DNA from: a virus
Lineage: Duplodnaviria; Caudoviricetes
DNA: 64,000 nt
Virus record (IMG/VR): IMGVR_UViG_3300032007_001727
Reading direction: 5' to 3' (one strand)
Below the pieces are notes generated by a model that was not told the DNA's origin, ran no database searches, and was given only the letters and a program-made list of their open reading frames with translations. A program made the position numbers and the translations under genes. Every line of letters starts with the position of its first letter. The stretch's first letter is position 1. Positions 3,312-59,800 of this stretch are shown in pieces.

Positions 3312-5336
3312 ATGAAAGAATTTTTATCAAGTGGTGTAGTTGGAAATATTGAGTACAACGCACAAAAACAGATACGTGAAAGCATTCAGAACCGTTGGGA
3401 ACAACTCGGTTTCACCGAGGGTTTACCGGATGGTATCAAGGAGAATGTCGCTACTCTGTACGAGAACGAGGCAAAGCACTTGATTTACGAGGCTACTGCT
3501 TCAGACAACAGCGGTTCGTTTGAGACCGTTGTATTCCCTATCATCCGTAGGGTATTCAGCAAGTTACTTGCTAATGACATTGTTTCGGTTCAAGCAATGA
3601 ACCTCCCCGTTGGTAAGTTGTTCTTCATCCTCCCGGTTACTTCGGAGAGAGAGTGGGAACTTCCGGAGGGTTCTACGGCTGAACCCGGTGACATTGTAGA
3701 TGGTACTACCGGCCGTCATAAGGGTCTCATGGGCTACGACCGCGTTAACCGCAACAAGGAGGGTCGTGTTGAGCCTCGCTACTATCTCCCGGACGAGACA
3801 ATCAATGACTTACAGAACGCTTGGTACATTCCGGTTCTGAGCGAGACCACAACCTATGACACGTTCGAGGCTGCTAAGGCTGCTGCTGAGGCCGCAGGTC
3901 TTACCCCAACTTCCATTCGCAGGGTTGGTCCGGAAGTGACTGAATACTTCCAAAAGAGCCTTTACGACTTGTTCTACAACGACTTCTTGTATGACAACTC
4001 AAAGGGTATGGTGACCATTAAGGTCGGCAACGCAATTCCCGTTATCATGACACCCGGCGGCATGCGTCCATTCGGTGACGGTGGTCAGTTAGGTGCTACC
4101 TATTTCAAGAGCGGCTTCGACGGCACAGTCCGTAACCTCGTTATTGAGATTGACGGTTTCTCTTCCTTCAACGCAAGCAAGTTAACCGGTCCGGACGGTA
4201 ACGAAATGGACACTGAAGGCTTCTTGGCTTCTCTTAAGGTTATCACTCAGAAGGAGTTCGCCGCTGCTGATGCTCCGGGTTCTGACGGTGTGAAGACCGC
4301 TGCCTTCCGTAAGTTTGAGTCCGTTCCTTTCCGTGTTGCAACACAGAAGTATGGCAAGGGCATTGTAGAGTATGGTTCTGCTTGTGACGCTGAGGGTAAG
4401 ATGTATCTTGAACTCGACCTCGCAAAACCTGTTATTCAGCAAGCCGGTACCATTGATGGTTACATTGGCGTAGCACCGGAGGCTTTGAATGCCGTTGTTG
4501 ACAAGGCTAACCCTGAGGCTACCAAGGAAGCAATGAAGAGCCTCTTCAAGATTGCTTGGGCACAGTATGACTCTCTCGAACTCGAAACCGAAATCGGTGA
4601 GGTTTCCTTCAAGTTGGACTCCGTTACCGTTTCCGTTGAGGAGAGAAAACTCCGTGCAACTTGGTCGCCGGAGTTGGCACAAGACGTTTCCGCTTTCCAT
4701 AACATTGACGCTGAGGCTGAGTTGACCGCAATCCTCTCTGAGCAGATTGCTGCTGAGATTGACCGTGAGATTCTCCGCGACCTCCGTAAGGGCGCACCTT
4801 GGCAAGCACGTTGGGACGTGAACGGTTGGAGACGTATGGCTGCTTTCTCCACGAACTACACTCAGAAGGACTGGAACCAAGAACTCGCAACGAAGATTAA
4901 TCAGATTTCTGCTCAGATTCAGAAGTCAACTCTCCGTGGCGGTGCCAACTTCATTGTTATCTCCTCTGAGATTAGTGCTCTCTTCAACAACCTTGAGTAC
5001 TTCCACGTGACGGACGCAAGCGCTGAGAGCGACCAATATAACATGGGTATTGAGAAGATTGGTTCTCTGAACGCACGTTATACGGTATATGTTGACCCAT
5101 ATAGCCCACATTGGTCCATCATCGTTGGTCACAAGGGTAAGAGTTTGCTCGACACCGGTTACATTTATGCACCTTATGTTCCAATGCAATTAACTCCTAC
5201 CATGTTCAATCCATTCAACTTTGCCCCGGTAAAGGGTATTATGACACGTTACGCTAAGAAAATGGTGAACAACAAATACTATGGTCACGTTCGAGTGGAT
5301 GGACTCGTTCATTGGAGTATCAATGAGTTTAGATAA
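3312..5336 (+). CDS. major capsid protein (T4 gp23-like)
   Basis: FPIIRRVF, LANDIVSVQAMNLPVG, RKLRATWSPELAQD, IDAEAELTAILSEQIAAEIDREI, YAPYVP, GIMTRY; strongly biased codon usage. Confidence 0.97.
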   Translation: MKEFLSSGVVGNIEYNAQKQIRESIQNRWEQLGFTEGLPDGIKENVATLYENEAKHLIYEATASDNSGSFETVVFPIIRRVFSKLLANDIVSVQAMNLPVGKLFFILPVTSEREWELPEGSTAEPGDIVDGTTGRHKGLMGYDRVNRNKEGRVEPRYYLPDETINDLQNAWYIPVLSETTTYDTFEAAKAAAEAAGLTPTSIRRVGPEVTEYFQKSLYDLFYNDFLYDNSKGMVTIKVGNAIPVIMTPGGMRPFGDGGQLGATYFKSGFDGTVRNLVIEIDGFSSFNASKLTGPDGNEMDTEGFLASLKVITQKEFAAADAPGSDGVKTAAFRKFESVPFRVATQKYGKGIVEYGSACDAEGKMYLELDLAKPVIQQAGTIDGYIGVAPEALNAVVDKANPEATKEAMKSLFKIAWAQYDSLELETEIGEVSFKLDSVTVSVEERKLRATWSPELAQDVSAFHNIDAEAELTAILSEQIAAEIDREILRDLRKGAPWQARWDVNGWRRMAAFSTNYTQKDWNQELATKINQISAQIQKSTLRGGANFIVISSEISALFNNLEYFHVTDASAESDQYNMGIEKIGSLNARYTVYVDPYSPHWSIIVGHKGKSLLDTGYIYAPYVPMQLTPTMFNPFNFAPVKGIMTRYAKKMVNNKYYGHVRVDGLVHWSINEFR

Positions 5337-27781: not shown

Positions 27782-27838
27782 ATTTAAATCACAGAAAATG
27801 AGAACGGCAACACAATTAAGTGCTGCCGTTTTTTATTG

Positions 27839-28655
27839 TTATTGTTCAACCTTGGTCCAACCATACTTACCTAAGTAATAATCACCACTTCCCATCCAAA
27901 CGTCATAGCCGCTGCTACCTTGTGGAACATAGAGAGTACCATCGGACCCGACATTGCCGAAAGTAGTATTTGCTATTGTTGGTGCTGTTGCTGCAAGTGA
28001 AGTTATTGCTGATAAACTAGAACAACCATTGAAGGCATTTTGACCAATGTTTGTAACACCACTTGGAATGTTTATACTTGATAAACTACGACAACCACTG
28101 AAAGTATAATTACCAATGATTGTAACGCTGTCCGGAATTGTTATACTTGATAAACTAGAACAATAAGCGAAAACATTATTATCAATGTTTGTAACACCAC
28201 TTGGTATTGTTATGCTTGATAAATTAGAACAACTAGCGAAAACATTATTACCAATGCTTGTAACACTGTCCGGAATTGTTATACTTGATAAACCAGTACA
28301 TTGAAGGAAAGCACTATTACCAATGTTTGTAATACCATTTGGTATTGTTATGCTTGATAAACTAGAACAATAACCGAAAGCCACCGCACCAATACTTGTG
28401 CAAAGTGTACCAACTTCAACACTGACACAAGTTGCGCTGTAACCGCTTATCATTGCTCTTGTAAGTTCTCCACTACCCTCGATATCAACAACCTCACCGT
28501 TTCGCAAAGTTAATTTACAGAAGAAGGGGGGGGGGGGTAGGATTGTAATGCACATCATCCTCAGCAACACAAAGTGATACATTTGGTTTTGGGTAGTCCG
28601 TGGCAACGTATGCTGTATAATCAGCATGTGTTGCAAATTCTTTAACGTACTTCAT
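27839..28655 (-). pseudogene. BspA-like LRR protein, frameshifted at a C12 tract (putative phase-OFF allele)
   Basis: True ATG at 28655 gives the same leader as the 59588 paralog; G12 at 28526-28537 shifts the frame (stop at 28515); 23-aa repeats SLSSITIPSGVTNIG..AF..C. Confidence 0.8.
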
Positions 28656-28741: not shown

Positions 28742-30016
28742 ATGCAAAATTCCATAAATACTGTAATGCGAAACAAAGGTGTACGTTTAAATGAAGAAGA
28801 AGCCTTAAGAAACATTAAAGACAAATGTAATGAGAGGGGTGTTGAGTTCATTGGTTTTGACAATGAAACAAATTCCTATATAAATAATAAGACATATTTG
28901 ATTTTAAGATGTAATAAATGTAATAAGATTTGGAAAACAACGACATATGATAAATTTGTAAGGTATAATAGGTCTTGTCCTAATTGTTCTAGAACAAAAA
29001 AAGTGACACTTGATGAATTAATTTCAAACACACTTGAATTATGTGAAGAAAAAGAATTTACATTCTTGGGTATAAGTGGTCCCTTTAAAGGCGTGAGAAC
29101 TAAATTGAAATTAAAATGCAATAGATGTGGTTATGAATGGCATACGACAACATACGTAAATCTAATAAAAAAGGACAGAAAAAGTCATTCGTGCAATAAA
29201 AGAAACCCATTGTATTCAACTGTAGGATTAAGAAGTGATAAAGCAACCAAAAGAGTTTTGGACTCATTAAAAGAAACTTCCCTTGAATTTGTATCCTTTA
29301 AAGATGGTGAATATATTGGATTCAATAAAACTAAAGTAATTCTAAAATGTAAAAAATGTAATAAGTTGAATGAATATTCTTTTTCTTATATCTGTAGTCA
29401 TAATATTTCTTGTAAATATTGCGAATATAATGGGAAGATTTCAAATGAGGCCGCAATTAAGATAATTGAAGACAAGTGCAAGGATTTAAATTATACTTTT
29501 TTAGGGTTTAAGACAATTGACGGAAGATATGATGGAAAGGATACTTATTTAATTTTAAAATGTAATAAATGTGGTAGAATTACTGATAGTACGAAGTTTT
29601 ATGTATTTGTCAATAGGGGGATAAAGTGCTTAAACTGTTCTAGGACTTGGAAAATGGAAGATGAAATTAAAACATTCCTTGATAAGGAAAAAATTGATTA
29701 TATTTATGACTGTAGGTCTAGGGTACTTCCTTGGCTTAAAAATAGAATATCATTGTCATTGGATTTTTATCTCCCAAAATATAATACTGCCATAGAATGT
29801 CAAGGCATTCAGCACTTCGAACCTAGTTCTTTTTATGGTGGTGAAAAGGAATTTGTCAAAACTTGTGATAGGGACAAGAGAAAACTCCTCCTATGCAAGG
29901 AAAACAATGTAACATTGCTCTATTACGACAGTGAGACACAACATCAATCCTTCTTGGGGGAAGTGGTTTTCAAGGATGTAAATAATTTATTTAAAGAAAT
30001 ATTAAAAAATGGATAA
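28742..30016 (+). CDS. free-standing homing endonuclease (CxxC repeats + Vsr/DUF559-like nuclease)
   Basis: Repeated LxCNKC modules; SLDFYLPKYNTAIECQGIQHF...DKRKLLLC. Confidence 0.75.
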   Translation: MQNSINTVMRNKGVRLNEEEALRNIKDKCNERGVEFIGFDNETNSYINNKTYLILRCNKCNKIWKTTTYDKFVRYNRSCPNCSRTKKVTLDELISNTLELCEEKEFTFLGISGPFKGVRTKLKLKCNRCGYEWHTTTYVNLIKKDRKSHSCNKRNPLYSTVGLRSDKATKRVLDSLKETSLEFVSFKDGEYIGFNKTKVILKCKKCNKLNEYSFSYICSHNISCKYCEYNGKISNEAAIKIIEDKCKDLNYTFLGFKTIDGRYDGKDTYLILKCNKCGRITDSTKFYVFVNRGIKCLNCSRTWKMEDEIKTFLDKEKIDYIYDCRSRVLPWLKNRISLSLDFYLPKYNTAIECQGIQHFEPSSFYGGEKEFVKTCDRDKRKLLLCKENNVTLLYYDSETQHQSFLGEVVFKDVNNLFKEILKNG

Positions 30017-31940: not shown

Positions 31941-32684
31941 TTACCTTACATTTTTATTCCTTATGAAATTATTTTCGTCGAAGTCGACATCATTTATGTC
32001 GAAATCATTATCCTCGTAACCATTGTCAGTAACTTGCCTCTCATCATTGTTTAATTGGTCCAAAGCCTTTTCATACTCATCCCAATAGTTATCCTCTTTT
32101 TCGGAATCCTTTTCAAGGTTCCTTGCAAACTCCTTGTATTTCTTACTATTAGGTTGAGAAGTGAACACGTTCTTCTTCCATTGTTGGTCCGCCCTAACCG
32201 GAACCGGCCCGTGAACGTTCTTTGTTGACATTTTAGGTGCCGGACCACCGACGTTCCTTACCCTTTCAAGCGGTGTTTCAAAGTCATCGAACTTGACGTT
32301 GTCGTAGAAATCTAGCATGGTCTTGTCACCGGTTCTGTTATATTCACCATAGGAAGACGGCGGAGTAGTATTGAACTTTTTATTCTTCATCGGTCTCCAA
32401 GACTTCACTCTGTCAAGGCGGAAGAATTTCCAGTTGGGAGCACCCCTCCTAGAGTTTCCGTTAAGTTGGAATGCTCTGAGAACCGGGTTGCCCTTCTTGG
32501 TCGTACCGACGGCAAAGGGCTGAATTATTCTGTTTCCCTTTGAATTTCCGCCGTTGTCTTCCTTACCGTCATCGTATTTTATATTGACGTGGTACTTGTC
32601 ATGGATACCGTCTAATACACTGTCCAAGTCAACCGCTTCGGTCAGAAGTCCGTTTATTATGTTATTAAGCGTTAGGCTAATCAT
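31941..32684 (-). CDS. WYL-like domain protein with N-terminal LLTE leader
   Basis: VNIKYD...RIIQPFAVG....NPVLRAFQ....WKFFRLDRVKSW. Confidence 0.65.
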   Translation of the reverse strand: MISLTLNNIINGLLTEAVDLDSVLDGIHDKYHVNIKYDDGKEDNGGNSKGNRIIQPFAVGTTKKGNPVLRAFQLNGNSRRGAPNWKFFRLDRVKSWRPMKNKKFNTTPPSSYGEYNRTGDKTMLDFYDNVKFDDFETPLERVRNVGGPAPKMSTKNVHGPVPVRADQQWKKNVFTSQPNSKKYKEFARNLEKDSEKEDNYWDEYEKALDQLNNDERQVTDNGYEDNDFDINDVDFDENNFIRNKNVR

Positions 32685-33799
32685 TTTTCAACAATGTAAT
32701 GAATTAAGTTTAGTTCGTTCTTGAAGGTTACTCCCTCCTCGTTTATTTCCTTGTAGTCCGTGAAATATATTAATCGGACATTGTTTTCAGCACACAATCT
32801 TGCTTTTCTCTCGTCCCTTTCTTTCTGTCTCTCAAAGTTTTCATTGAGCACTTCCTCTCTGTTGTCACCGTTGAAACTGCAAGGTTCATAGTGTTGTTCG
32901 CCTTGGCACTCAATTGCAACGTTATATTCCGGAAGATAGAAATCCAAGTGTTGGAGTCCGAGCCAAGGTGCTCTGAATGACTGTTTGAATTCAATCTCGT
33001 TTTTGTTGAGCAAGTTTGCAATTTGTTCCTCAAGGTGGCTTTGGTTACATTTTGGACATCCGTGACCATTTAAATGGTCATTTGGTCTTATCTTAAAAAT
33101 GCCATGCTTCATACACATAACATCCACTTTAGTTTTGGAATTAATATATTTTACATTATCGTATGAGTATTTGTCTTTGTGTATAGCAGAGGCTTTTTTA
33201 ATAAATTTTTCAACATTATCCCATCTATCATTTTTGGAACACTCTAAACAACCGTACCCTTTTAGATGACTATTTGGTGTTTGTTCAAATTCACCATGTA
33301 TCGGACAAGTAATTTTTATTTTTGTTTTACTATCTATATAATCAACATTGGAGTAGTCGTATTTGTCACCGTGGATTTCAACCGCCTTTTTAATAAAAGA
33401 CTCTGTTGTTAAGTGTTCCCTTTTACCGCATTTAGGACACCCACAGCCACTCAAATGCGATGTTGGTGTTTGTTCAAATTCACCATGTATCGGGCAAATT
33501 ATTTTACATAGAGTTCTGCTATTGATATAATTTGTATAAGTATATTTATCATTATGTATAATTGAGGCTTTGTTAACAAATTCGCCAAAATTACTCCTTA
33601 ATTTTTCATATGAACATTCTTTACAACCAATACCATTTAATAAATGTTTTGGTGTTTGAAAAAAGTCACCATGTTTTTTACAGTGTACTTTAACTTTAGT
33701 CGTTTTATTTATATACTCTATATCAGAGAAATCAAATTCCCCATTATATATAGTATCTAACTCTTTAATAACTTCCTCTTTTGATAAATGTTTACCCAT
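32681..33799 (-). CDS. free-standing homing endonuclease (C..HG.F.Q.P..HL.G.GC..C repeats + Vsr/DUF559-like nuclease)
   Basis: Four repeats; HLDFYLPEYNVAIECQGEQHY. Confidence 0.8.
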   Translation of the reverse strand: MGKHLSKEEVIKELDTIYNGEFDFSDIEYINKTTKVKVHCKKHGDFFQTPKHLLNGIGCKECSYEKLRSNFGEFVNKASIIHNDKYTYTNYINSRTLCKIICPIHGEFEQTPTSHLSGCGCPKCGKREHLTTESFIKKAVEIHGDKYDYSNVDYIDSKTKIKITCPIHGEFEQTPNSHLKGYGCLECSKNDRWDNVEKFIKKASAIHKDKYSYDNVKYINSKTKVDVMCMKHGIFKIRPNDHLNGHGCPKCNQSHLEEQIANLLNKNEIEFKQSFRAPWLGLQHLDFYLPEYNVAIECQGEQHYEPCSFNGDNREEVLNENFERQKERDERKARLCAENNVRLIYFTDYKEINEEGVTFKNELNLIHYIVEK

Positions 33800-49206: not shown

Positions 49207-50334
49207 ATGTTAAAAGCCTACAAATATAAGATAAAACCAAACCAACAGCAAGAGGAACTTTTGTCAAAGTTCTTCGGTTGTGTGCGCTATATCTATAATT
49301 GGGGCTTAAATGCAAAAACAAGTGCTTACAAGGAAAATGGTAAGGCAATCAACTATCTGCAACTTGCAAAGGAATTAACATCATTAAAGCAACAACAAGA
49401 CCATGAATGGCTCAATGAATGTACAACAGAGGCATTGCAACAGTCGCTCAGAAGTCTTGACAATGCTTTCACAGCATTTTTCCGAAAGAAAGCAAAGTAC
49501 CCAAGATTCAAGTCAAAGAAACGCACAAAGAACTCTGTGAAGTTCATAAAATCAGTACATTTTGACTTTGAGAATTGGAAGGTTAAACTGCCAAAGTTGG
49601 GATGGATTAAGTTGTGCAAGAACAAGACATTTAACCAAAGCATTTGCAAACAAGGCACTTGTACCGTATCAAGAGACCATTGCGGAACATATTGGTGCGT
49701 AATAACGGTTGATGATTTGCAGCCAAAACCAACGAAAGCCAAGTTGGTTAAGGATAATGCAATTGGAATCGACCTTGGCATCAAGGACTACGCAATACTA
49801 TCAGATGGAACAAAGTTCGCCAACCCAAAGCATCTTGAACAAGCGCAGAGGAATCTTGCTCACTTGCAGAGGGTATTTGCAAGAAAGGGCAAGGATTCCA
49901 AGAATCACGAAAGCATGAGAGTAAAGGTTGCAAAGTGCTACAGAAGCATCACCAATCGAAGGAATGACTTTTTGCATAAGTTATCAACTTATCTTGTAAG
50001 AAACTACGATGTAATTTGCCTTGAAGATTTGAATGTAAAGGGGATGGAACAGAACCATCACCTTGCAAGGGCAATCCAAGATGCGGCTTGGGGTGAGTTT
50101 GTTAGACAACTTGAGTACAAGTCTGAATGGTATGGTAAAAACATACTATTTATAGGTAGGTTTGAGCCAAGCAGCAAGTTATGTCACAAGTGCGGTTACA
50201 TCAACCAAGAGTTGAAACTATCAGATAGAGAGTGGATATGCCCACAATGTGGTGAACATCTTGACAGAGACGTTAACGCTGCGATGAACATCAAGGAGAT
50301 TGCTTTTGATAAGCAGAACCTTGTCGGAGTTTAA
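49207..50334 (+). CDS. tnpB: IS200/IS605-family RNA-guided endonuclease TnpB, catalytic residues intact
   Basis: KAYKYKIKP..Q...FGCVRYIYN; RuvC GIDLGIK, CLEDLNVKGM, DRDVNAAMNI; CHKC/CPQC zinc finger. Confidence 0.93.
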   Translation: MLKAYKYKIKPNQQQEELLSKFFGCVRYIYNWGLNAKTSAYKENGKAINYLQLAKELTSLKQQQDHEWLNECTTEALQQSLRSLDNAFTAFFRKKAKYPRFKSKKRTKNSVKFIKSVHFDFENWKVKLPKLGWIKLCKNKTFNQSICKQGTCTVSRDHCGTYWCVITVDDLQPKPTKAKLVKDNAIGIDLGIKDYAILSDGTKFANPKHLEQAQRNLAHLQRVFARKGKDSKNHESMRVKVAKCYRSITNRRNDFLHKLSTYLVRNYDVICLEDLNVKGMEQNHHLARAIQDAAWGEFVRQLEYKSEWYGKNILFIGRFEPSSKLCHKCGYINQELKLSDREWICPQCGEHLDRDVNAAMNIKEIAFDKQNLVGV

Positions 50335-52364: not shown

Positions 52365-54815
52365 ATGAAAAAAATAACGTCAGAGGTAGTGAATACGTTC
52401 TTGAACGGCCATGACCCGATGGAACATATTATATCAATAGAGTGCGGCTACGACGAGGATAAGGTAAATATCATCTATGTTAACGACAACGGTGAGAAGC
52501 GCATCAGACAAGATGACTTCAAACCGTTTATTTGGCTTAAGCACAGTGCCGCAATCAGAATGTTTAACGGTGATAGGGCCAAACTCAGAATGGCCCTAAG
52601 GCACTATGGCATATCTATCAGAAGTCTGATAACCTCCAATGAAGGTGAAGAACCCAATGAAAGACTCTTGAACGGGTACAAATACTTGTTCTACGCCACT
52701 AGGCGAATGAGTTACATGGAATTTCAGAGGTTTTTCTCCGAGGCGGGGGTACCCCTCAGTGAAAGGAACAAGAAGGACGCACCAAAGCAGCAGAACAAGG
52801 AGTTTATGATGGTCACGCCGGTTGAACAGTACATGATTCAGACCGGTCATCGACTTTTCAAGGGATACGACTCATACGACTCGCTTGTCCGTTTCATATT
52901 CGACTTGGAGACCCAAGGACTTAATCCTAGAATCCATAGGATAGAGCAGATTGGTATTCATACGAACAAGGGTTTCGACAAGATAATATCCATAGAGGGA
53001 AACTCAAAGGAAGAGTTGGACAAAGCAGAGTTGGAGGGAATAAAGGAATTTTTAAGAATATTGTCAGAAATAAAACCGGACACGGTTGTCGGCCATAACT
53101 CAGAGAATTTCGACTTTGACTTCCTAATTGTCCGGTGTGAAGAACTTGGCGTGGATTTCTCAGAACTCTCACTGTATTATTTCAGACACCCCATTTATAA
53201 GAAAAAGAAGGAGGCGGTATTGAAATTGGGAGGTGAGGTCGAGTATTATTTCCCCACAATCATATGGGGACACAACGTCTTGGACTCCCTTCATTCTGCA
53301 AGAAGGGCACAAGCCATTGACTCAAACATGAAGTCATCGAACTTGAAATACATTACGAAATATCTGAACCTAAAGAAACCGAACCGTGTATATGTCCCGG
53401 GTGATAAAATCACCTCCACTTGGGCCGTCCGAGGAAAAGAATATGCATTTAACGATGAAGACGGTGATTGGTACAAGGTAACGGACACCAAGCCGTTGAA
53501 GGACGGGTATGAGTTGGTGAGCGGAAGATACATAGTTGAAAGGTACTTGTTGGATGACCTTTGGGAGACCGACAAGGTGGAAGAACGCCTTAACGAGTCA
53601 AACTTTCTTGTCGGCAAGATGCTTCCGACAACATTCTCAAGGGCTTGCACCATGGGAACCGCAGGAATTTGGAAACTCATAATGCTTGCTTGGTGCTATG
53701 AGAACAACTTGGCAATACCGGCATCCGCTCCGAACAGAAGGTTTGTCGGTGGGTTATCCCGTCTATTGAAGACCGGCTACGTTGACCGCATAGTCAAGTT
53801 GGACTACAACTCACTCTATCCTTCCGTAATCTTGACTTGGAATATCTCCACCCCCATTGACGTAATGAACGTCATGCTGTCTTTCTTGGAATATATCTTG
53901 ACACAACGCGAGAAATACAAGGAACTTAAGGCAGAGGCCGGAGAAAAGGCAGACGAACTCAATGACATTCTCTCAAATACCGTAAGCGAGGAAGAGATTA
54001 TAAGACTAAAGGAAGAGATTTCCCATTGGAAAGCAGAAAAAAGCGGCAATGATAAAAAACAATTACCCCTCAAGATACTAGCGAATTCATTTTTCGGAGG
54101 CTACGGTTCTCCTAGTGTTTTCCCGTTCGGGGACATAGTTGCGGCAGAGAAGACAACTTGTGTCAGCAGAATGGCCTTAAGGCTGATGATTTCACACTTC
54201 AAGTCCATAGGGTATGAGCCTATAGTGGGTGACTCATTCACAAGTGACACACCTCTCTTCGTAAAATATGACAGCACGGACGAAATAGACATAAAGCCGA
54301 TTTCGGAACTGTTCGAGAGGACGGAGACAGACGCTCTAGGAAGGGAGTACGACACCTCTAGAAAGGATTATTCCGTACTTTGCAGAAGCGGTTGGGTTCA
54401 CCCCAACTATCTATACCGCCATAAGACAGACAAGCCCTTGTACACGGTTTCAGAGGGTGACATGGAGATAACGGTCACGGAGGACCACAGCCTCTTCAAT
54501 GGCGAAGGTAAGGAGATAAAGCCAAGCGAGGTATGCAATGACACCATACTAGAGTATTACACCAAGGAAATCAAGTGTGCGGGCATAAAGTACGAGTGGA
54601 TGACCGAAGAAAGGGCAAGACTCTTCGGGAAAATGGTCAACGTGGGCGTGGCCGACCGTGTTGGAATGGCACTCCTCAACACCTCAGACATGGCGTGTGT
54701 TGAAGCCTTCTTGGACGAAGTAGAGAATCTAGACCGCCCAATCTCAAAGACTTGCCAAGCGGGCATACTGTATCTAAAAAACAAGGTAAAACATGGGAAA
54801 AAAGATAACGTTTAA
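52365..54815 (+). CDS. polB: DNA polymerase B N-terminal fragment (aa 1-623) fused to split intein N-half
   Basis: Exo FDLETQG, GHNSENFD, YLLDD; motif A LDYNSLYPS; motif B KILANSFFG; motif C breaks at IVGD|SFTSDTP. Confidence 0.92.
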   Translation: MKKITSEVVNTFLNGHDPMEHIISIECGYDEDKVNIIYVNDNGEKRIRQDDFKPFIWLKHSAAIRMFNGDRAKLRMALRHYGISIRSLITSNEGEEPNERLLNGYKYLFYATRRMSYMEFQRFFSEAGVPLSERNKKDAPKQQNKEFMMVTPVEQYMIQTGHRLFKGYDSYDSLVRFIFDLETQGLNPRIHRIEQIGIHTNKGFDKIISIEGNSKEELDKAELEGIKEFLRILSEIKPDTVVGHNSENFDFDFLIVRCEELGVDFSELSLYYFRHPIYKKKKEAVLKLGGEVEYYFPTIIWGHNVLDSLHSARRAQAIDSNMKSSNLKYITKYLNLKKPNRVYVPGDKITSTWAVRGKEYAFNDEDGDWYKVTDTKPLKDGYELVSGRYIVERYLLDDLWETDKVEERLNESNFLVGKMLPTTFSRACTMGTAGIWKLIMLAWCYENNLAIPASAPNRRFVGGLSRLLKTGYVDRIVKLDYNSLYPSVILTWNISTPIDVMNVMLSFLEYILTQREKYKELKAEAGEKADELNDILSNTVSEEEIIRLKEEISHWKAEKSGNDKKQLPLKILANSFFGGYGSPSVFPFGDIVAAEKTTCVSRMALRLMISHFKSIGYEPIVGDSFTSDTPLFVKYDSTDEIDIKPISELFERTETDALGREYDTSRKDYSVLCRSGWVHPNYLYRHKTDKPLYTVSEGDMEITVTEDHSLFNGEGKEIKPSEVCNDTILEYYTKEIKCAGIKYEWMTEERARLFGKMVNVGVADRVGMALLNTSDMACVEAFLDEVENLDRPISKTCQAGILYLKNKVKHGKKDNV
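54234..54815 (+). other. split intein N-half (~193 aa, Ser1)
   Basis: Block A SFTSDTPLFVK; block B TVTEDHSLF; tail resembles a decayed LAGLIDADG domain. Confidence 0.85.
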
Positions 54816-56424
54816 TGAATTTGTGGATAGGTCAAATGAAATACATAATTCAAAATACGCCTACCATGAAGACTCATATACCAATACACGTAATAAGACT
54901 AGGATAACTTGTCCAATTCACGGTGATTTCTATCAAACACCTAAGAATCATATGAATGGACAAGGTTGTCCTCAATGTGGAAAGGAAGTTGCTAGGATAT
55001 ATCATAAACATAATTATGAACCATTTATTAGGGCTGCAAAAGAAAGGTTTGGTGATGATTTTTCGTTCCCAAACATAGAAAGACAATATGTTAATAATAA
55101 AACTTATATTACGGTTAGATGCAATAAATGTGGATACGAATTCTCTAGACGGCCCAATGACTTGTTAAGTGATAAGTTTAATGAGTGTAAGAATTGCAAA
55201 CACATAGAAAAATTGGAAAATAGGAATAAATTAAAAATAAAGAAAACAAATAAAAGACATTCAGTAGGGAAAGAAGAATATATTAAGCGCTTCAGAGAAA
55301 AGTTCGGGGACAGCATTACTCCGTTTATGGACGAATACAAAAACACCCAAAGCGAAATACATTTCAAGTGCAACCAATGTGGGTACATCTTTAAGAGAAG
55401 ACCGCATAATTGCTTAGATAGTGACGGGTGTCCAAAATGTAAAAGAGTCAATAACCAAAAATATACCAATGACATTTTCATAGAGAAAGCAAGGGAAATT
55501 CATGGTGATAAATATGACTATTCAAAGGTAAATTATGTTAATAGTGATACTAAAGTGTGTGTAATTTGTCACGAAAAGGATAAATTTGGTGATGAACACG
55601 GTGAATTTTATGTTACACCGCATTCACATATTGGTAGTATGAGAAGTGGGTGTCCAAAATGCAGTGGAAAATTCAGAAAAGATACGGAATATTTCATAAA
55701 GGAGGCGAAATTGGTACATGGTGACAAGTATATATACGATGAGACCGAATATGTTTCTGCATTGAAAAATATTAAGGTTATATGTCCAACGCATGGTCCG
55801 TTTTCAATCAAACCGAATGACCATTTAAACGGTAAGGGCTGCAAGAAATGCGGGTATGAGACGGTCAGTGACAAATTAAGTATTAGTTTTGATGAGTTTA
55901 TCGAGCGGGCCACAGTAATACATAATAATAAATATGATTATTCGAAGGTAGACCTTAAAAATAGAGGCGAAAATGGCCGAATTTGCATTATTTGTCCCAT
56001 TCATGGTGAATTTTGGCAGTCATTGGGAGGTCATTTACGTGGTAATGGGTGTCCAAAATGCAAACAATCGCATTTGGAGAATGAAATTATGCGTTTCTTG
56101 GATGAAAAATCCATCAAATATGAGCCGCAGAAGCGATTTAGGTGGCTTGGAGGGCGTAAGAGTGTTGATTTTTTCCTACCGGACTATAATATTGCCATAG
56201 AATGCCAAGGAATTCAGCATTTTGAGGACACTTTCTTCGGTAAGGCTGAAGAAAAGATGAAAAATGACCTTTTAAAGAGAGAAATTTGTGAAAAAAATGG
56301 TATAAAAGTCTTGTACTACAGCAACTTAGGGATTGAGTACCCATACAGCGTCTTTGAAGACAAGGATTTGCTGCTGCAAGAGGTTTTTAAGTCTGATTTG
56401 ATTAAAATTTGTGAAGATGGATAA
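54793..56424 (+). CDS. free-standing homing endonuclease between the polB halves
   Basis: CPIHG.F...P..H..G.GC..C repeats; SVDFFLPDYNIAIECQGIQHF; overlaps both polB genes. Confidence 0.82.
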   Translation: MGKKITFNEFVDRSNEIHNSKYAYHEDSYTNTRNKTRITCPIHGDFYQTPKNHMNGQGCPQCGKEVARIYHKHNYEPFIRAAKERFGDDFSFPNIERQYVNNKTYITVRCNKCGYEFSRRPNDLLSDKFNECKNCKHIEKLENRNKLKIKKTNKRHSVGKEEYIKRFREKFGDSITPFMDEYKNTQSEIHFKCNQCGYIFKRRPHNCLDSDGCPKCKRVNNQKYTNDIFIEKAREIHGDKYDYSKVNYVNSDTKVCVICHEKDKFGDEHGEFYVTPHSHIGSMRSGCPKCSGKFRKDTEYFIKEAKLVHGDKYIYDETEYVSALKNIKVICPTHGPFSIKPNDHLNGKGCKKCGYETVSDKLSISFDEFIERATVIHNNKYDYSKVDLKNRGENGRICIICPIHGEFWQSLGGHLRGNGCPKCKQSHLENEIMRFLDEKSIKYEPQKRFRWLGGRKSVDFFLPDYNIAIECQGIQHFEDTFFGKAEEKMKNDLLKREICEKNGIKVLYYSNLGIEYPYSVFEDKDLLLQEVFKSDLIKICEDG

Positions 56425-57979
56425 GATTACTGCTAGAAATGTTGGGGCAACGGACGATTATGTGTATGACATTAGTCTTGATGGCTCCGTTGTTAATGCC
56501 CTTGGGTTGAACATCGCCTCAAACACTGACGGTTTTAACTTTCAGATGCCAAAGGATGAGGATTTCCGCTACACGGACGAGCATCCGTACGTTAGCACCG
56601 GAGAAGGGCGAAATTCTGTGAAAGGAAAGGCTTACACGAAGGTTGATGCCGACGTTGCCGAGTTCGAGGACTTGTTCCTCAACAAGTCTTATAACGGTGG
56701 CGTGAACAAAATGGGTTTGGGAATAGATGAGTATTGTGACGCTTGCATTCAATTCGCTCGAAAGAACTATGCGGATTTAATGGCGGGCACCGGAAAAACT
56801 AAAAAGGTGGGTAATACGATTAAATCTAGGAAGATGAGTGGTTATCTTGAAAAGTTTATTGATAGTGGCATTGACTTGTTGTTAAGGGGTAACGGGTATG
56901 AGTTCTTGTTGAACTATTATGACTACATTGAGAAGATATATAACTATCAGATTCCGATTAAGGATATTGCCTCAAAGGGAAACATCAAGAAAAGCATCAA
57001 GGATTACATGGATGACTGTAAGACACTTACCAAGGCAGGGTCCAAGAAGGCAAGGCAAGCGTGGTATGAGTTGGTTATAAAGGAAGGTATAAACGTGAAC
57101 GTAAGCGACACCATATATTATATAAATACCGGTACAAGGAAGGGTCACCCCGACGTTAAGCGCGTTACGCACTACTTCTATTTCTTGGACGGGGAGAAGA
57201 AGGAAATCACAAAGGAAGTGGAGAAGTTGTATAAGACTTATTATAAGGAGTGTGGAGAACACGGGGTCGTGGCAAGGAAGAACCGGTTGGACGTTGCTAG
57301 GGAGAATTTCGGCGAAGGTGCGTTTGACGAGGATGAAATCATCTTAATGTGCAAATTGGTGCCCAACGAGATTCTTGACAAGGAGGAAGACGTGCTTTGC
57401 AGCGAGTATGAGGGCCTAGAGTATAACGTTGAGAGATACATTGATATGTTCAACAAGCGCATAACCCCGCTTTTGGTGTGTTTTCATCCGGATATCCGTG
57501 GAAAGATACTCATAACCAACCCAAAGGACAAGTTATTCTTCACTGAGGAAGAGGCTAGGTTGGTATGTGGTTATCCAAATAAGGAGGGCGACCAAGATAC
57601 GTATGAGGCACTGATGACACCGGAAAGAAAAGAGGTTGAATATTGGGTCTCAATAAATGAAGAGCCTCCGTTTGTGAAGGAGTGCGGGATTGATTGGGAT
57701 TCCATCGTTTCAGAGTATCACAAGACGGTTGAGGATGAAAACAACGAATTGTTCAAGAACGAGAATGAGAAATATTTGGAGGCGTTGTCAAAGATAACCG
57801 ATGATGAAATTGAAGAATTCGAGAACGACGGAAAGATACCGCAAGAGATTTCATCGCTTGTGACGCTTGGGTCTGACATGAGGTTCCGGTTCAAGAAAAT
57901 TCCGGAGAAGACACCGTCAACCGGCGGGTTTATCTTCGATGACCTCACGAAGAATCTTGTTGAACAATTTGAAGAATAA
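56417..57979 (+). CDS. polB: split intein C-half (36 aa) fused to DNA polymerase B C-terminal fragment
   Basis: MDKITARNVGATDDYVYDISLDGSVVNALGLNIASN|TDGFNF; RKNYA, KKVG polB motifs. Confidence 0.9.
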   Translation: MDKITARNVGATDDYVYDISLDGSVVNALGLNIASNTDGFNFQMPKDEDFRYTDEHPYVSTGEGRNSVKGKAYTKVDADVAEFEDLFLNKSYNGGVNKMGLGIDEYCDACIQFARKNYADLMAGTGKTKKVGNTIKSRKMSGYLEKFIDSGIDLLLRGNGYEFLLNYYDYIEKIYNYQIPIKDIASKGNIKKSIKDYMDDCKTLTKAGSKKARQAWYELVIKEGINVNVSDTIYYINTGTRKGHPDVKRVTHYFYFLDGEKKEITKEVEKLYKTYYKECGEHGVVARKNRLDVARENFGEGAFDEDEIILMCKLVPNEILDKEEDVLCSEYEGLEYNVERYIDMFNKRITPLLVCFHPDIRGKILITNPKDKLFFTEEEARLVCGYPNKEGDQDTYEALMTPERKEVEYWVSINEEPPFVKECGIDWDSIVSEYHKTVEDENNELFKNENEKYLEALSKITDDEIEEFENDGKIPQEISSLVTLGSDMRFRFKKIPEKTPSTGGFIFDDLTKNLVEQFEE

Positions 57980-58034
57980 GGAAAAAAGAAAGGTGACTAT
58001 TTAAATTGATAGTCACCTTTTTTATTGTTAAGTA

Positions 58035-59588
58035 TTATTGTTCAACCTTTGTCCAATTATACTTACCCAAGTAATAATCACCCGTTCCCATCCAAACATC
58101 ATAGCCGCTGCTACCGGTTGGAACTGTCAGAGTACCACCGGCCTTAATATTATAAAAAGTAAAATTTTGTATTGTTGGTGCAGTTACCGCAAGTGAGGTT
58201 ATTGCCGATAAACTAGAACAACTATTGAAAGCATTCTGACCAATGCTTGTAACACCACTTGGAATGTTTATACTTGATAAACTAGAACACATATAGAAAG
58301 CATAGGTACCCATACTTGTAACACCACTTGGTATTGTTATACTTGATAAACTAGTACAACTTTGGAAAGCGCTATTACCAATGCTTGTAACACTGTCCGG
58401 AATTGTTACGCTTGTTAAACTATGACAACTAGAGAAAGCATTAGCACCAATGGTTGTAATATCATTTGGTATAACAGTTGTCTTACAACCACCAACTAAA
58501 GTGTTTGTGTTTGTTTCAATAATTGCATTGCAATTGTTTCTTGAGTCATAGGTCGTGTTTGCAGCATCAACTGTTATGCTTGTTAAATTATAACAACCAC
58601 TGAGAATACCATTACCAATACTTGTAACACCACTTGGTATTGTTATACTTGATAAACTAGAACAACTATTGAAAGCACTACCACCAATGCTTGTAACACT
58701 GTCCGGAATTGTTACGCTTGTTAAGCCGGAACAACCATTGAAAGCGTTGGTACCAATACTTGTAACACTATCCGGAATTGTTACACTTGTTAAACCGGAA
58801 CATTGATAAAATGCATAATTACCAATACTTGTGATGTTATCTCCAATTATATATTCTTTCACTTGGGTACCAAAATAAGTTTTAATACTTGCAGAATACG
58901 AATAATTCTTTGAAACAATAGAATTACTATTGATTGTAACACTTGTTAAATGATAGCAATCAAAGAAAACATTGTCACCAATGTATGTGACACCACTTCC
59001 AATGGTAAAATCTGTCATACCATCACATGCGCGAAAAGCATATTGGCTAATACCGGTAACGCTGTCCGGAATTGTCATACTTGTTAAAGCCCAACATTGA
59101 TAGAAAGCATAATTACTAACGTTTGTAACACCACTACCAAGCGTACAAGTTTTCATCTGACTACATTCACTAAAAACATAACTACCAATTCTTGTAACAC
59201 TGTCCGGGATTACTAACTCCCTTATAGCGCATCCGAGGAAAGCGTAATCACCAATCCTTGTAACGCCGTCCGGAATTGTTACACTTGTTAAACTAGTACA
59301 GGCGCTGAAAGCCCTATTGCCAATGCTTGTACAAAGTGTACCGATTTCAGCACCGACACAAGTTGATTTGTATGAACTTGTCATTGCACTTGTAAGTTCT
59401 CCACTGCCCTCAATATCAACAACTTCACCGTTCTTAAGTGTTAACTTACAGAAGAATGGGGGGGGGGGAGCAGGGTTATAATACACATCACCCTCAGCAA
59501 CGCAAAGTGATACATTTGGCTTTGGATAGTCCGTGGCAACATACGCTGTATAATCAGCATGTGTTGCAAATTCTTTAACGTACTTCAT
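58035..59588 (-). CDS. BspA-like (LRR_5) protein, in frame through a C11 tract
   Basis: Many 23-aa LTSVTIPDSVTSIG..AF..C repeats; G11 at 59458-59468. Confidence 0.9.
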   Translation of the reverse strand: MKYVKEFATHADYTAYVATDYPKPNVSLCVAEGDVYYNPAPPPPFFCKLTLKNGEVVDIEGSGELTSAMTSSYKSTCVGAEIGTLCTSIGNRAFSACTSLTSVTIPDGVTRIGDYAFLGCAIRELVIPDSVTRIGSYVFSECSQMKTCTLGSGVTNVSNYAFYQCWALTSMTIPDSVTGISQYAFRACDGMTDFTIGSGVTYIGDNVFFDCYHLTSVTINSNSIVSKNYSYSASIKTYFGTQVKEYIIGDNITSIGNYAFYQCSGLTSVTIPDSVTSIGTNAFNGCSGLTSVTIPDSVTSIGGSAFNSCSSLSSITIPSGVTSIGNGILSGCYNLTSITVDAANTTYDSRNNCNAIIETNTNTLVGGCKTTVIPNDITTIGANAFSSCHSLTSVTIPDSVTSIGNSAFQSCTSLSSITIPSGVTSMGTYAFYMCSSLSSINIPSGVTSIGQNAFNSCSSLSAITSLAVTAPTIQNFTFYNIKAGGTLTVPTGSSGYDVWMGTGDYYLGKYNWTKVEQ

Positions 59589-59800
59589 AATTAATTAATA
59601 AAGATTTAAATTAAGTTATTTATTTCTCTTTATAAATACAGTTTACTTGTTTAAAATCTCGCATAAAAAAAAATAAATTTTATTTTTGTGTAGTTTTGCT
59701 CCGTATAAAATATTTATTGGTAATTATGGTGGAAAAATATAAACATATTAGACCATTGCTTCCTAAGAAAATTAAGTAATTACTAATTTAAAATAAAATT

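Follow-up and report, generated by a model that had tools for sequence, protein, structure and literature searches.

A Poly-C Tract at the Domain Linker of LRR Genes as a Probable Slippage-Prone Switch in a Large Rumen Phage

Structure of the Two LRR Genes

The window, i.e., the whole stretch of viral DNA analyzed here (64 kb), carries two paralogous LRR genes, copies A and B, both on the minus strand. Copy A is composed of a short leader ORF and an LRR body, which are placed in different reading frames by a C12 homopolymer. The following features were distinguished for this gene:

28515..28655, minus strand: leader ORF of copy A (46 aa), composed of a 39-codon conserved N-terminal module, a proline run, an off-frame tail and a stop codon
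28526..28537, minus strand (G12 on the plus strand): C12 homopolymer of copy A, with 1 base in excess for the LRR frame
27839..28525, minus strand: LRR body of copy A, 228 open codons and a stop codon, with a PF13306 match
28603..28634 (copy A) and 59536-59567 (copy B), minus strand: leader-internal hairpin, -13.5 kcal/mol, z -3.96
27803..27830, minus strand: terminator-like hairpin 3' of the copy A stop codon
28656..28740, minus strand: AT-rich region 5' of copy A, candidate promoter, with blocks TATTTATA, AGAAATAA and TAACTTAATT, in this order, common to copy B in the alignment

Copy A starts at the ATG at position 28655 of the minus strand and its leader begins with MKYVKEFATHADYTAYVATDYPKPNVSLCVAE. 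The leader frame encodes MKYVKEFATHADYTAYVATDYPKPNVSLCVAEDDVHYNP up to the C12 tract and is read across it as ACC CCC CCC CCC CTT CTT CTG TAA, which yields the 46-aa peptide. The LRR frame directly 3' of the tract (TTC TTC TGT AAA, i.e., FFCK) is open over 228 codons, up to the stop codon at 27839; the chance that an off-frame stays open over this length is approximately 7e-10. The LRR body begins with FFCKLTLRNGEVVDIEGSGELT, consists of BspA-type LRR units followed by a C-terminal cap (...WTKVEQ), and matches the Pfam profile PF13306 (BspA-type LRR) with an E value of 7.5e-53 (178 bits; cut-off 27.7). Joining the leader and LRR frames requires C11 or C14.

Exactly such a C11 tract is present in the second gene, for which three features were distinguished:

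58035..59588, minus strand: copy B, intact 517-aa paralogue, ATG at 59588, with the same leader as copy A
59458..59468, minus strand: C11 homopolymer of copy B, in frame (GCT CCC CCC CCC CCA, i.e., APPPP)
57989..58020, minus strand: terminator-like hairpin 3' of the copy B stop codon

In copy B the APPPP linker is followed in frame by FFCKLTL, and the encoded protein matches PF13306 with an E value of 2.2e-124 (409 bits; cut-off 27.7). The first 32 amino acids of copies A and B are identical, and an HMM of the N-terminal module, applied to the 64-kb window, recognized exactly these two genes. The architecture proposed in the preliminary description (a leader starting at 28655 and identical to that of the paralogue at 59588, a frame shift by C12 that leaves a 46-aa peptide, restoration of the LRR protein by C11 or C14, and an in-frame C11 in the paralogue) was thus borne out by the translations.

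Both copies have a 5' AT-rich block, partly common to the two genes, and a 3' terminator-like hairpin, and both are antisense among plus-strand genes; they therefore look like self-contained cassettes. Without mismatch, the motif AATAACTTAATT occurs in the window only 5' of copies A and B. When one mismatch was allowed, a third match appeared (59770-59781), and three matches at this stringency are at chance level (19/100 shuffles). Sigma-70-type promoter matches at both genes did not exceed the shuffled background, with a tool that does not cover Bacteroidota-type promoters. The leader-internal hairpin shows compensatory changes at 2 of its 11 pairs among 6 related sequences and is disrupted in one of them (L061). 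In distant family members a smaller palindrome is found at the same position.

The LRR frame of copy A contains two ATG codons of its own, at 28558 and 28555 (28553-28558, minus strand; MMCITILPPPPFFCK), which lie 18-21 nt 5' of the C12 tract. The second of them was chosen by the gene caller on a related ENA contig, giving a 238-aa protein. The out-of-frame copy A might, judging from these codons, detach the LRR body from the N-terminal module instead of silencing it, and a leaderless LRR protein is conceivable. An equivalent ATG is present in the related gene L057 and absent from L059 to L062, so uncoupling via an internal start codon is not general. A switch at the tract would also bear on gene calling, since genes of this type are routinely split into 46-aa and 238-aa ORFs.

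Genome Context of the Window

Among the proteins encoded in the window are a major head protein (3312-5336), a helicase, a family B DNA polymerase and proteins with weak tail matches. Exact look-ups of the neighboring proteins showed that the window is syntenic with a 366,366-bp ENA contig and with a 366,743-bp contig recorded from both JGI and ENA. Judging from this synteny, the window is part of a rumen phage genome of approximately 366 kb, and it seems to represent a third, slightly different assembly of the phage, since its 517-aa copy B is absent from the protein collection. The related contigs carry the names STEW18/STEW19 or belong to PRJEB21624, which we take to be cattle rumen surveys.

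A comparison of the window DNA with 50,697 phage records gave no match. The LRR proteins had no match among cultured phage records; the similar LRR bodies found belong to uncultured gut and rumen phages. PDB sequence searches with three neighboring proteins (1046, 497, and 676 aa) also gave no match.

Several other features of the window were recorded. The family B DNA polymerase (52365-57979) is encoded as two ORFs of 816 and 522 aa, both overlapped by a 543-aa HNH/homing-endonuclease-like gene (PHROG 559, E 9e-95). A 375-aa ORF (49207-50334) corresponds to an OrfB_IS605/Cas12f1-like TNB gene (TnpB) in the syntenic ENA contig. Several paralogous Zn-ribbon-repeat proteins (28742-30016, 32681-33799, and 54793-56424) show a CapR homology domain and matches to DUF723 and HNH-endonuclease PHROGs. 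One of the Zn-ribbon-repeat genes is transcribed divergently from copy A.

ON and OFF States in Related Assemblies

The state of each gene (ON, with the LRR body in the frame of the module, or OFF) was read from consensus assemblies, in which the window and the 366,366-bp and 366,743-bp contigs are not counted as independent samples. The close clade, defined by the leader ..ATDYPKPNVS.., shows the following tract lengths:

Copy A: C12
Copy B: C11
L057: C10
L059 and L060: C9
L061: C10
L062: C11

Fifteen leader-bearing products, counted as distinct sequences, are available when copy B of the window is added to the database proteins. In 9 of them the sequence stops 3-9 residues past the proline run. 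These truncated peptides, recovered by a search for short proteins similar to the 46-aa peptide, are P0121 to P0125 and P0127 to P0130; the six intact products are copy B, P0009, P0042, P0126, P0131, and P0132, four of which (P0009, P0042, P0131, and P0132) came from a search for longer proteins. In six OFF copies the DNA is known (copy A, L057, L059, L060, L061, and L062) and the LRR frame is open in all of them, over 74 to 291 codons, mostly reaching the contig end. A shift of +1 would rejoin the frames in copy A, L057, L059/L060 and L062; L061 and P0121 require -1. The closely related genes L059 and L060 (C9) on the one hand, and L061 (C10) on the other, differ in tract length.

The peptide of copy A is itself a database protein (P0125), recorded from JGI and ENA assemblies. 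The 366,366-bp ENA contig encodes the same 46-aa product and the 238-aa protein mentioned above, with the spacing found in the window. This contig also carries P0009, the syntenic counterpart of copy B, in the ON state. P0009 (369 aa) and copy B (517 aa) are identical in 315 of the first 316 residues and in the C-terminal cap; the difference in length consists of 148 aa of LRR units present in copy B only (approximately residues 314-461). The breakpoints lie within the repeated SAFNSCSSLS(S/A)IT units, and the difference may have arisen either by repeat-to-repeat recombination or by collapse of the repeats in the assembly.

A third form of the copy B locus is suggested by P0121, a 48-aa peptide (MKYVKEFATHADYTAYVATDYPKPNVSLCVAEGDVYYNPAPPPHSSVS) ending with ...NPAPPPHSSVS. 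Its sequence is that of the copy B DNA read with C10 (CCC CCC CCC CAT TCT TCT GTA AGT TAA), P0121 being known as a protein only. P0121 is encoded on a 53,754-bp JGI contig, and P0134, which clusters at 90% identity with the 676-aa neighbor of copy B in the window, is encoded on a contig also of 53,754 bp; by this comparison, the P0121 contig appears to be syntenic with the copy B region. Since copy B and P0009 are intact and P0121 fits C10, the state of the copy B locus appears to differ between assemblies, two of them showing it ON and another OFF.

Library PCR and sequencing are prone to errors in G/C homopolymers of at least 10 bases, such as runs of 10-12, and the C12 of copy A might be a homopolymer miscall made in sequencing or assembly, the true tract being in frame. 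We regard this as very unlikely. It would agree with the fact that only consensus assemblies are available, and with the break of the Logan assembly of SRR9008756 on either side of the gene (for copies A and B alike, its contigs stop on either side inside the common leader and leave the tract uncovered). However, another large contig, with a different copy B (369 vs. 517 aa), repeats the 46-aa peptide and the gene spacing, OFF peptides truncated at the tract come from at least seven different assemblies, and P0129, a C9 OFF peptide, is identical in three ENA assemblies. A random miscall is improbable on the grounds of these recurrences, and it would leave the existence of the tract itself unexplained. 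The recurrence of one state (copy A OFF in at least two assemblies, P0129 with C9 in three) is also expected from a stable frameshift, and in this respect it weighs against a switch.

The states observed also bear on a recoding explanation, according to which an OFF allele is still expressed by +1 ribosomal slippage on CCC CCC CCC CCC C, or by RNA polymerase slippage. Pro-tRNA would re-pair during a poly-proline stall, and one genotype would produce the 46-aa peptide and the full protein in a set ratio. The tract encodes PPP/PPPP, at which ribosomes are known to stall, and CCC-C is known to favor +1 shifts; moreover, 5 of the 7 OFF alleles require the same +1 shift, and the OFF state of copy A is identical in two assemblies. 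Against recoding stand the six in-frame alleles (copy B, P0009, P0042, P0126, P0131, and P0132) and the opposite shift required by two OFF alleles. The slippery context is also not fixed (the tract is 9 to 12 bases long and is followed by TTC, ATT, ATA, ACC, GCC or ATA), no stimulatory structure was seen 3' of the tract, and transcriptional slippage has been documented chiefly for A/T runs. We consider this explanation improbable, although recoding could coexist with switching at the DNA level, making the OFF state leaky. As the sole explanation, a fixed programmed frameshift is ruled out by the in-frame alleles and by the two shift directions. Random slippage at the DNA level fits the observations better, because the direction of the shift varies and in-frame copies exist.

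Rarity and Maintenance of the Poly-C Tract

G/C runs in the 64-kb window have lengths of 1 to 5, after which there are none until the two tracts of 11 and 12. The preliminary description had noticed no other long G/C runs in the window, and this count, with none other above 5, agrees with it. C 9-mers are found solely within the two tracts, with 0.11 expected by shuffling. CCC accounts for 10% of the proline codons among the 17,463 codons of the window, and in the LRR genes it is used nowhere except in the tract. The C12 and C11 tracts are thus uninterrupted simple-sequence repeats inside ORFs, far above chance, in which a change of one unit toggles the frame and behind which the frame of the OFF alleles is intact.

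In the close clade the tract is pure at the homologous codon in 6/6 distinct sequences, i.e., in all the clade DNA obtained. At third codon positions the leaders of the six show 6-19 differences out of 37 (16-51%), and the codon is invariant at only 9 of 24 invariant residues. Since three or four rare CCC codons in a row have remained pure in all six despite diverged synonymous sites, the tract is maintained and not simply of recent origin, which points to selection for it.

A different picture was obtained for more distant relatives. At approximately 50 related rumen metagenome loci (47-78% identical in the N-terminal part), the linker is written in mixed CCA/CCT/CCG codons and has no homopolymer. 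The metagenome scan, which covered 52 loci, revealed neither close relatives nor long tracts; an IMG/VR search found only two distant relatives, both devoid of the tract, and a scan of genome contigs for relatives found none. In one distant member (L041; approximately 846-1016, OCTX011556707.1), FFCK is preceded by a C-rich linker with interruptions, CCCCTAATCCCCCTCCCC, which may, on sequence grounds, be an intermediate or a decayed tract. The mixed codons of the distant relatives indicate that the poly-C tract is lineage-specific, and the approximately 50 members without it show that the family as such has no need of a switch. The preliminary description had held that paralogues encoding the proline linker with mixed codons, and showing no variation in length, would refute phase variation; such linkers are indeed present in the approximately 50 distant loci, whereas the close clade has pure C9-C12.

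These data also bear on the possibility that copy A and the other truncated copies are decayed members (pseudogenes) of a redundant family. The poly-C linker would then be a weak spot prone to mutation, of no adaptive value, and frameshifts in it would be the most frequent cause of gene loss. The family is indeed large and redundant, 9 of the 15 leader-bearing products are truncated, identical OFF states recur in several assemblies, and distant relatives manage without the tract. None of the OFF copies, however, carries a second lesion, the LRR frames being open in all cases (approximately 7e-10 for the 228 codons of copy A). The purity of the rare CCC codons next to synonymous sites that diverge by 16-51% also argues against a mere weak point, and selection against loss of the protein should have interrupted the tract, as in the distant relatives. 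We therefore give decay little credence, about as little as recoding.

Architecture and Putative Function of the LRR Proteins

A protein search with the LRR body of copy A produced 5,086 matches, with no near-identical orthologue among them (the best was 63% identical); many of the matches are encoded on contigs of 290-405 kb. The N-termini of the matches show that the approximately 39-aa module (M.KYLK.F.T...Y......PNVS.....VHYNP) is common among these large rumen phages. Behind the module comes a Pro-rich linker, after which the proteins continue with the FFCKLTL LRR domain or with a different segment inserted before that domain. In P0005, P0010, P0033, P0094 and others (rumen contigs of 100-400 kb) another segment, e.g., ETRVVAKFNVTDTSSPT, replaces the FFCKLTL N-cap before the LRR units. 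Since the module precedes different segments, it looks like a general adaptor.

In a structural model of the close ON paralogue P0126 (pLDDT 94.8), a small strand-helix-strand-strand module is connected by a linker to an LRR solenoid. The best PDB matches of this model (Foldseek E 1e-6 to 1e-4) were 4fs7, 6mlx (TpLRR), 4gt6, and 4cp6 (PcpA), and its solenoid also resembles LRR proteins of uncultured gut phages. Both a PF13306 profile score above the cut-off and an LRR solenoid fold were therefore found, which places the proteins in the BspA-type LRR family. The N-terminal module had no Pfam match, and its structural comparison gave only short, unrelated matches (Atlas feature scores 0.76), none of them reliable. 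No signal peptide was seen, as the N-terminus MKYVKEFATHADY, inspected by eye, is not hydrophobic.

Phage fibres and decoration proteins are usually built in this way, with varied binding domains behind a common N-terminal module; such a layout would equally suit a capsid-targeting or packaging tag. We infer that the module serves to anchor the LRR domain or to direct it to its site. A location of the LRR proteins in the virion and a role in host binding, both suggested in the preliminary description, gained no support and would be a guess. The gene context offers two hints only: the paralogue P0042 adjoins a gp25-like baseplate gene, and a PHROG comparison gave the 676-aa neighbor of copy B a weak adhesin/tail match (E 1.5e-4).

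Proposed Mechanism and Its Significance

Other run lengths occur in the related assemblies, and for this reason a slippage-prone switch is the most likely reading of the tract. We estimate at roughly 60% the probability that slipped-strand mispairing at the poly-C linker switches these genes heritably ON and OFF, independently in each paralogue. The phage would carry a family of monocistronic cassettes of one layout, composed of (i) the approximately 39-aa module, (ii) a pure poly-C proline linker, (iii) a BspA-type LRR binding domain, and (iv) a conserved C-terminal cap. The tract would act as a hypermutable simple-sequence repeat, at which mispairing during replication of the phage DNA gains or loses a C and so sets the LRR domain in or out of the frame of the module. 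Each paralogue would thereby be heritably ON or OFF, with copy A (C12) OFF and copy B (C11) ON, and the phage population would be a mixture of repertoires, a form of bet-hedging. We infer that the differences in tract length come from frequent reversible slippage within populations. The slipped-strand phase variation put forward in the preliminary description agrees with the differences in tract length and state between assemblies; frequent reversible switching in the population gained no support from the consensus data.

A further extension, which we put forward as speculative and rather doubtful, is a phasome of at least approximately ten LRR cassettes that switch independently, all docked at, or packaged via, one virion site by the common module, so that the particles of each burst would differ in their sets of binding domains. 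In a jumbo phage, such a phasome would act as a lottery in which host-range or anti-defence properties are drawn in combinations. A second source of variation would be the gain and loss of LRR units, for example the 148 aa by which copy B and P0009 differ.

The poly-C signature is remarkably clean, being confined to one family and one codon position, with pure C9-C12 tracts and with over half of the known leader-bearing products OFF. If the proposed switching takes place, large uncultured rumen phages hedge over their repertoire of binding proteins, which bears on the prediction of host range from metagenomes and on the coexistence of phages with hosts that are themselves phase-variable.

Comparison with Known Systems

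Phase variation is textbook knowledge for bacteria, and among viruses it has been shown solely for Campylobacter phages and, lately, for T-even phages. The preliminary description was right to call the mechanism much less familiar in phages; the examples in the literature are few, yet it has already been demonstrated there (PMC11868660; bioRxiv 10.1101/2025.10.21.683753). A literature search on rumen jumbo phages yielded no work that treats poly-C switches or LRR families.

The LRR genes have no sequence homology to Fletchervirus proteins or phages (DNA comparison with 50,697 phage records; protein search). Fletchervirus phages reportedly contain several polyG loci per genome. Hypermutable polyG tracts have been described in receptor-binding protein genes of these Campylobacter phages (Sorensen et al., 2021, Cell Rep 35:109214, as presented in PMC11868660; the study is also cited in PMC10877375 and PMC12823448). 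The rumen phage resembles them in having a G/C homopolymer of approximately 9-13 bases inside a phage reading frame, a change in the length of which corresponds to ON or OFF, as summarized in PMC11868660. According to the same summary, switching, plaque type and host recognition were shown experimentally for Fletchervirus, whereas the switching of the rumen phage is deduced from assemblies alone. In contrast to Fletchervirus, the carriers here are BspA-type LRR proteins of an uncultured phage of approximately 366 kb, and the tract lies exactly at the domain linker.

Contingency loci have also been described in phages T2 and T4, in which simple-sequence repeats within phage genes undergo reversible frameshifts by polymerase slippage, providing bet-hedging among the progeny (Gomez, Barrick and Waters, 2025, bioRxiv 10.1101/2025.10.21.683753). 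The coliphage repeats are short runs (6 or more; e.g., in agt and rIIA), occur in all gene classes and are under-represented in tail fibre genes (bioRxiv 10.1101/2025.10.21.683753). The tracts of the rumen phage, by comparison, are long (C9-C12) and restricted to one homologous position of one paralogous family, no other G/C run in the 64-kb window exceeding 5.

With the phasomes of Campylobacter jejuni, Neisseria and Haemophilus (PMC11868660; PMC4965091) the rumen phage genes share intragenic poly-G/C tracts near the 5' end, multiple loci that would switch independently, and products of the binding or surface type. Unlike in the bacterial genes, the carrier is a virus: slippage would fall to the phage family B polymerase (52365-57979), and no cell lineage carries the phase. 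The encoded proteins have the same repeat family and fold as BspA-type surface proteins (PF13306; 4fs7, 6mlx TpLRR, 4cp6 PcpA), but no signal peptide or cell-wall anchor was seen in them, and they possess the phage-specific N-terminal module of approximately 39 aa instead.

Phage binding proteins are further diversified by the Gin/G segment system of Mu, by Cin-mediated tail-fibre inversion in P1, and by diversity-generating retroelements. Tail-fibre DNA inversion and such retroelements are cited as host-range determinants in PMC12823448. Like these systems, the poly-C tract would be a phage-encoded device through which the progeny differ in a binding protein; unlike the inversions, which depend on a site-specific recombinase, and the retroelements, which depend on a reverse transcriptase, it requires no dedicated enzyme.
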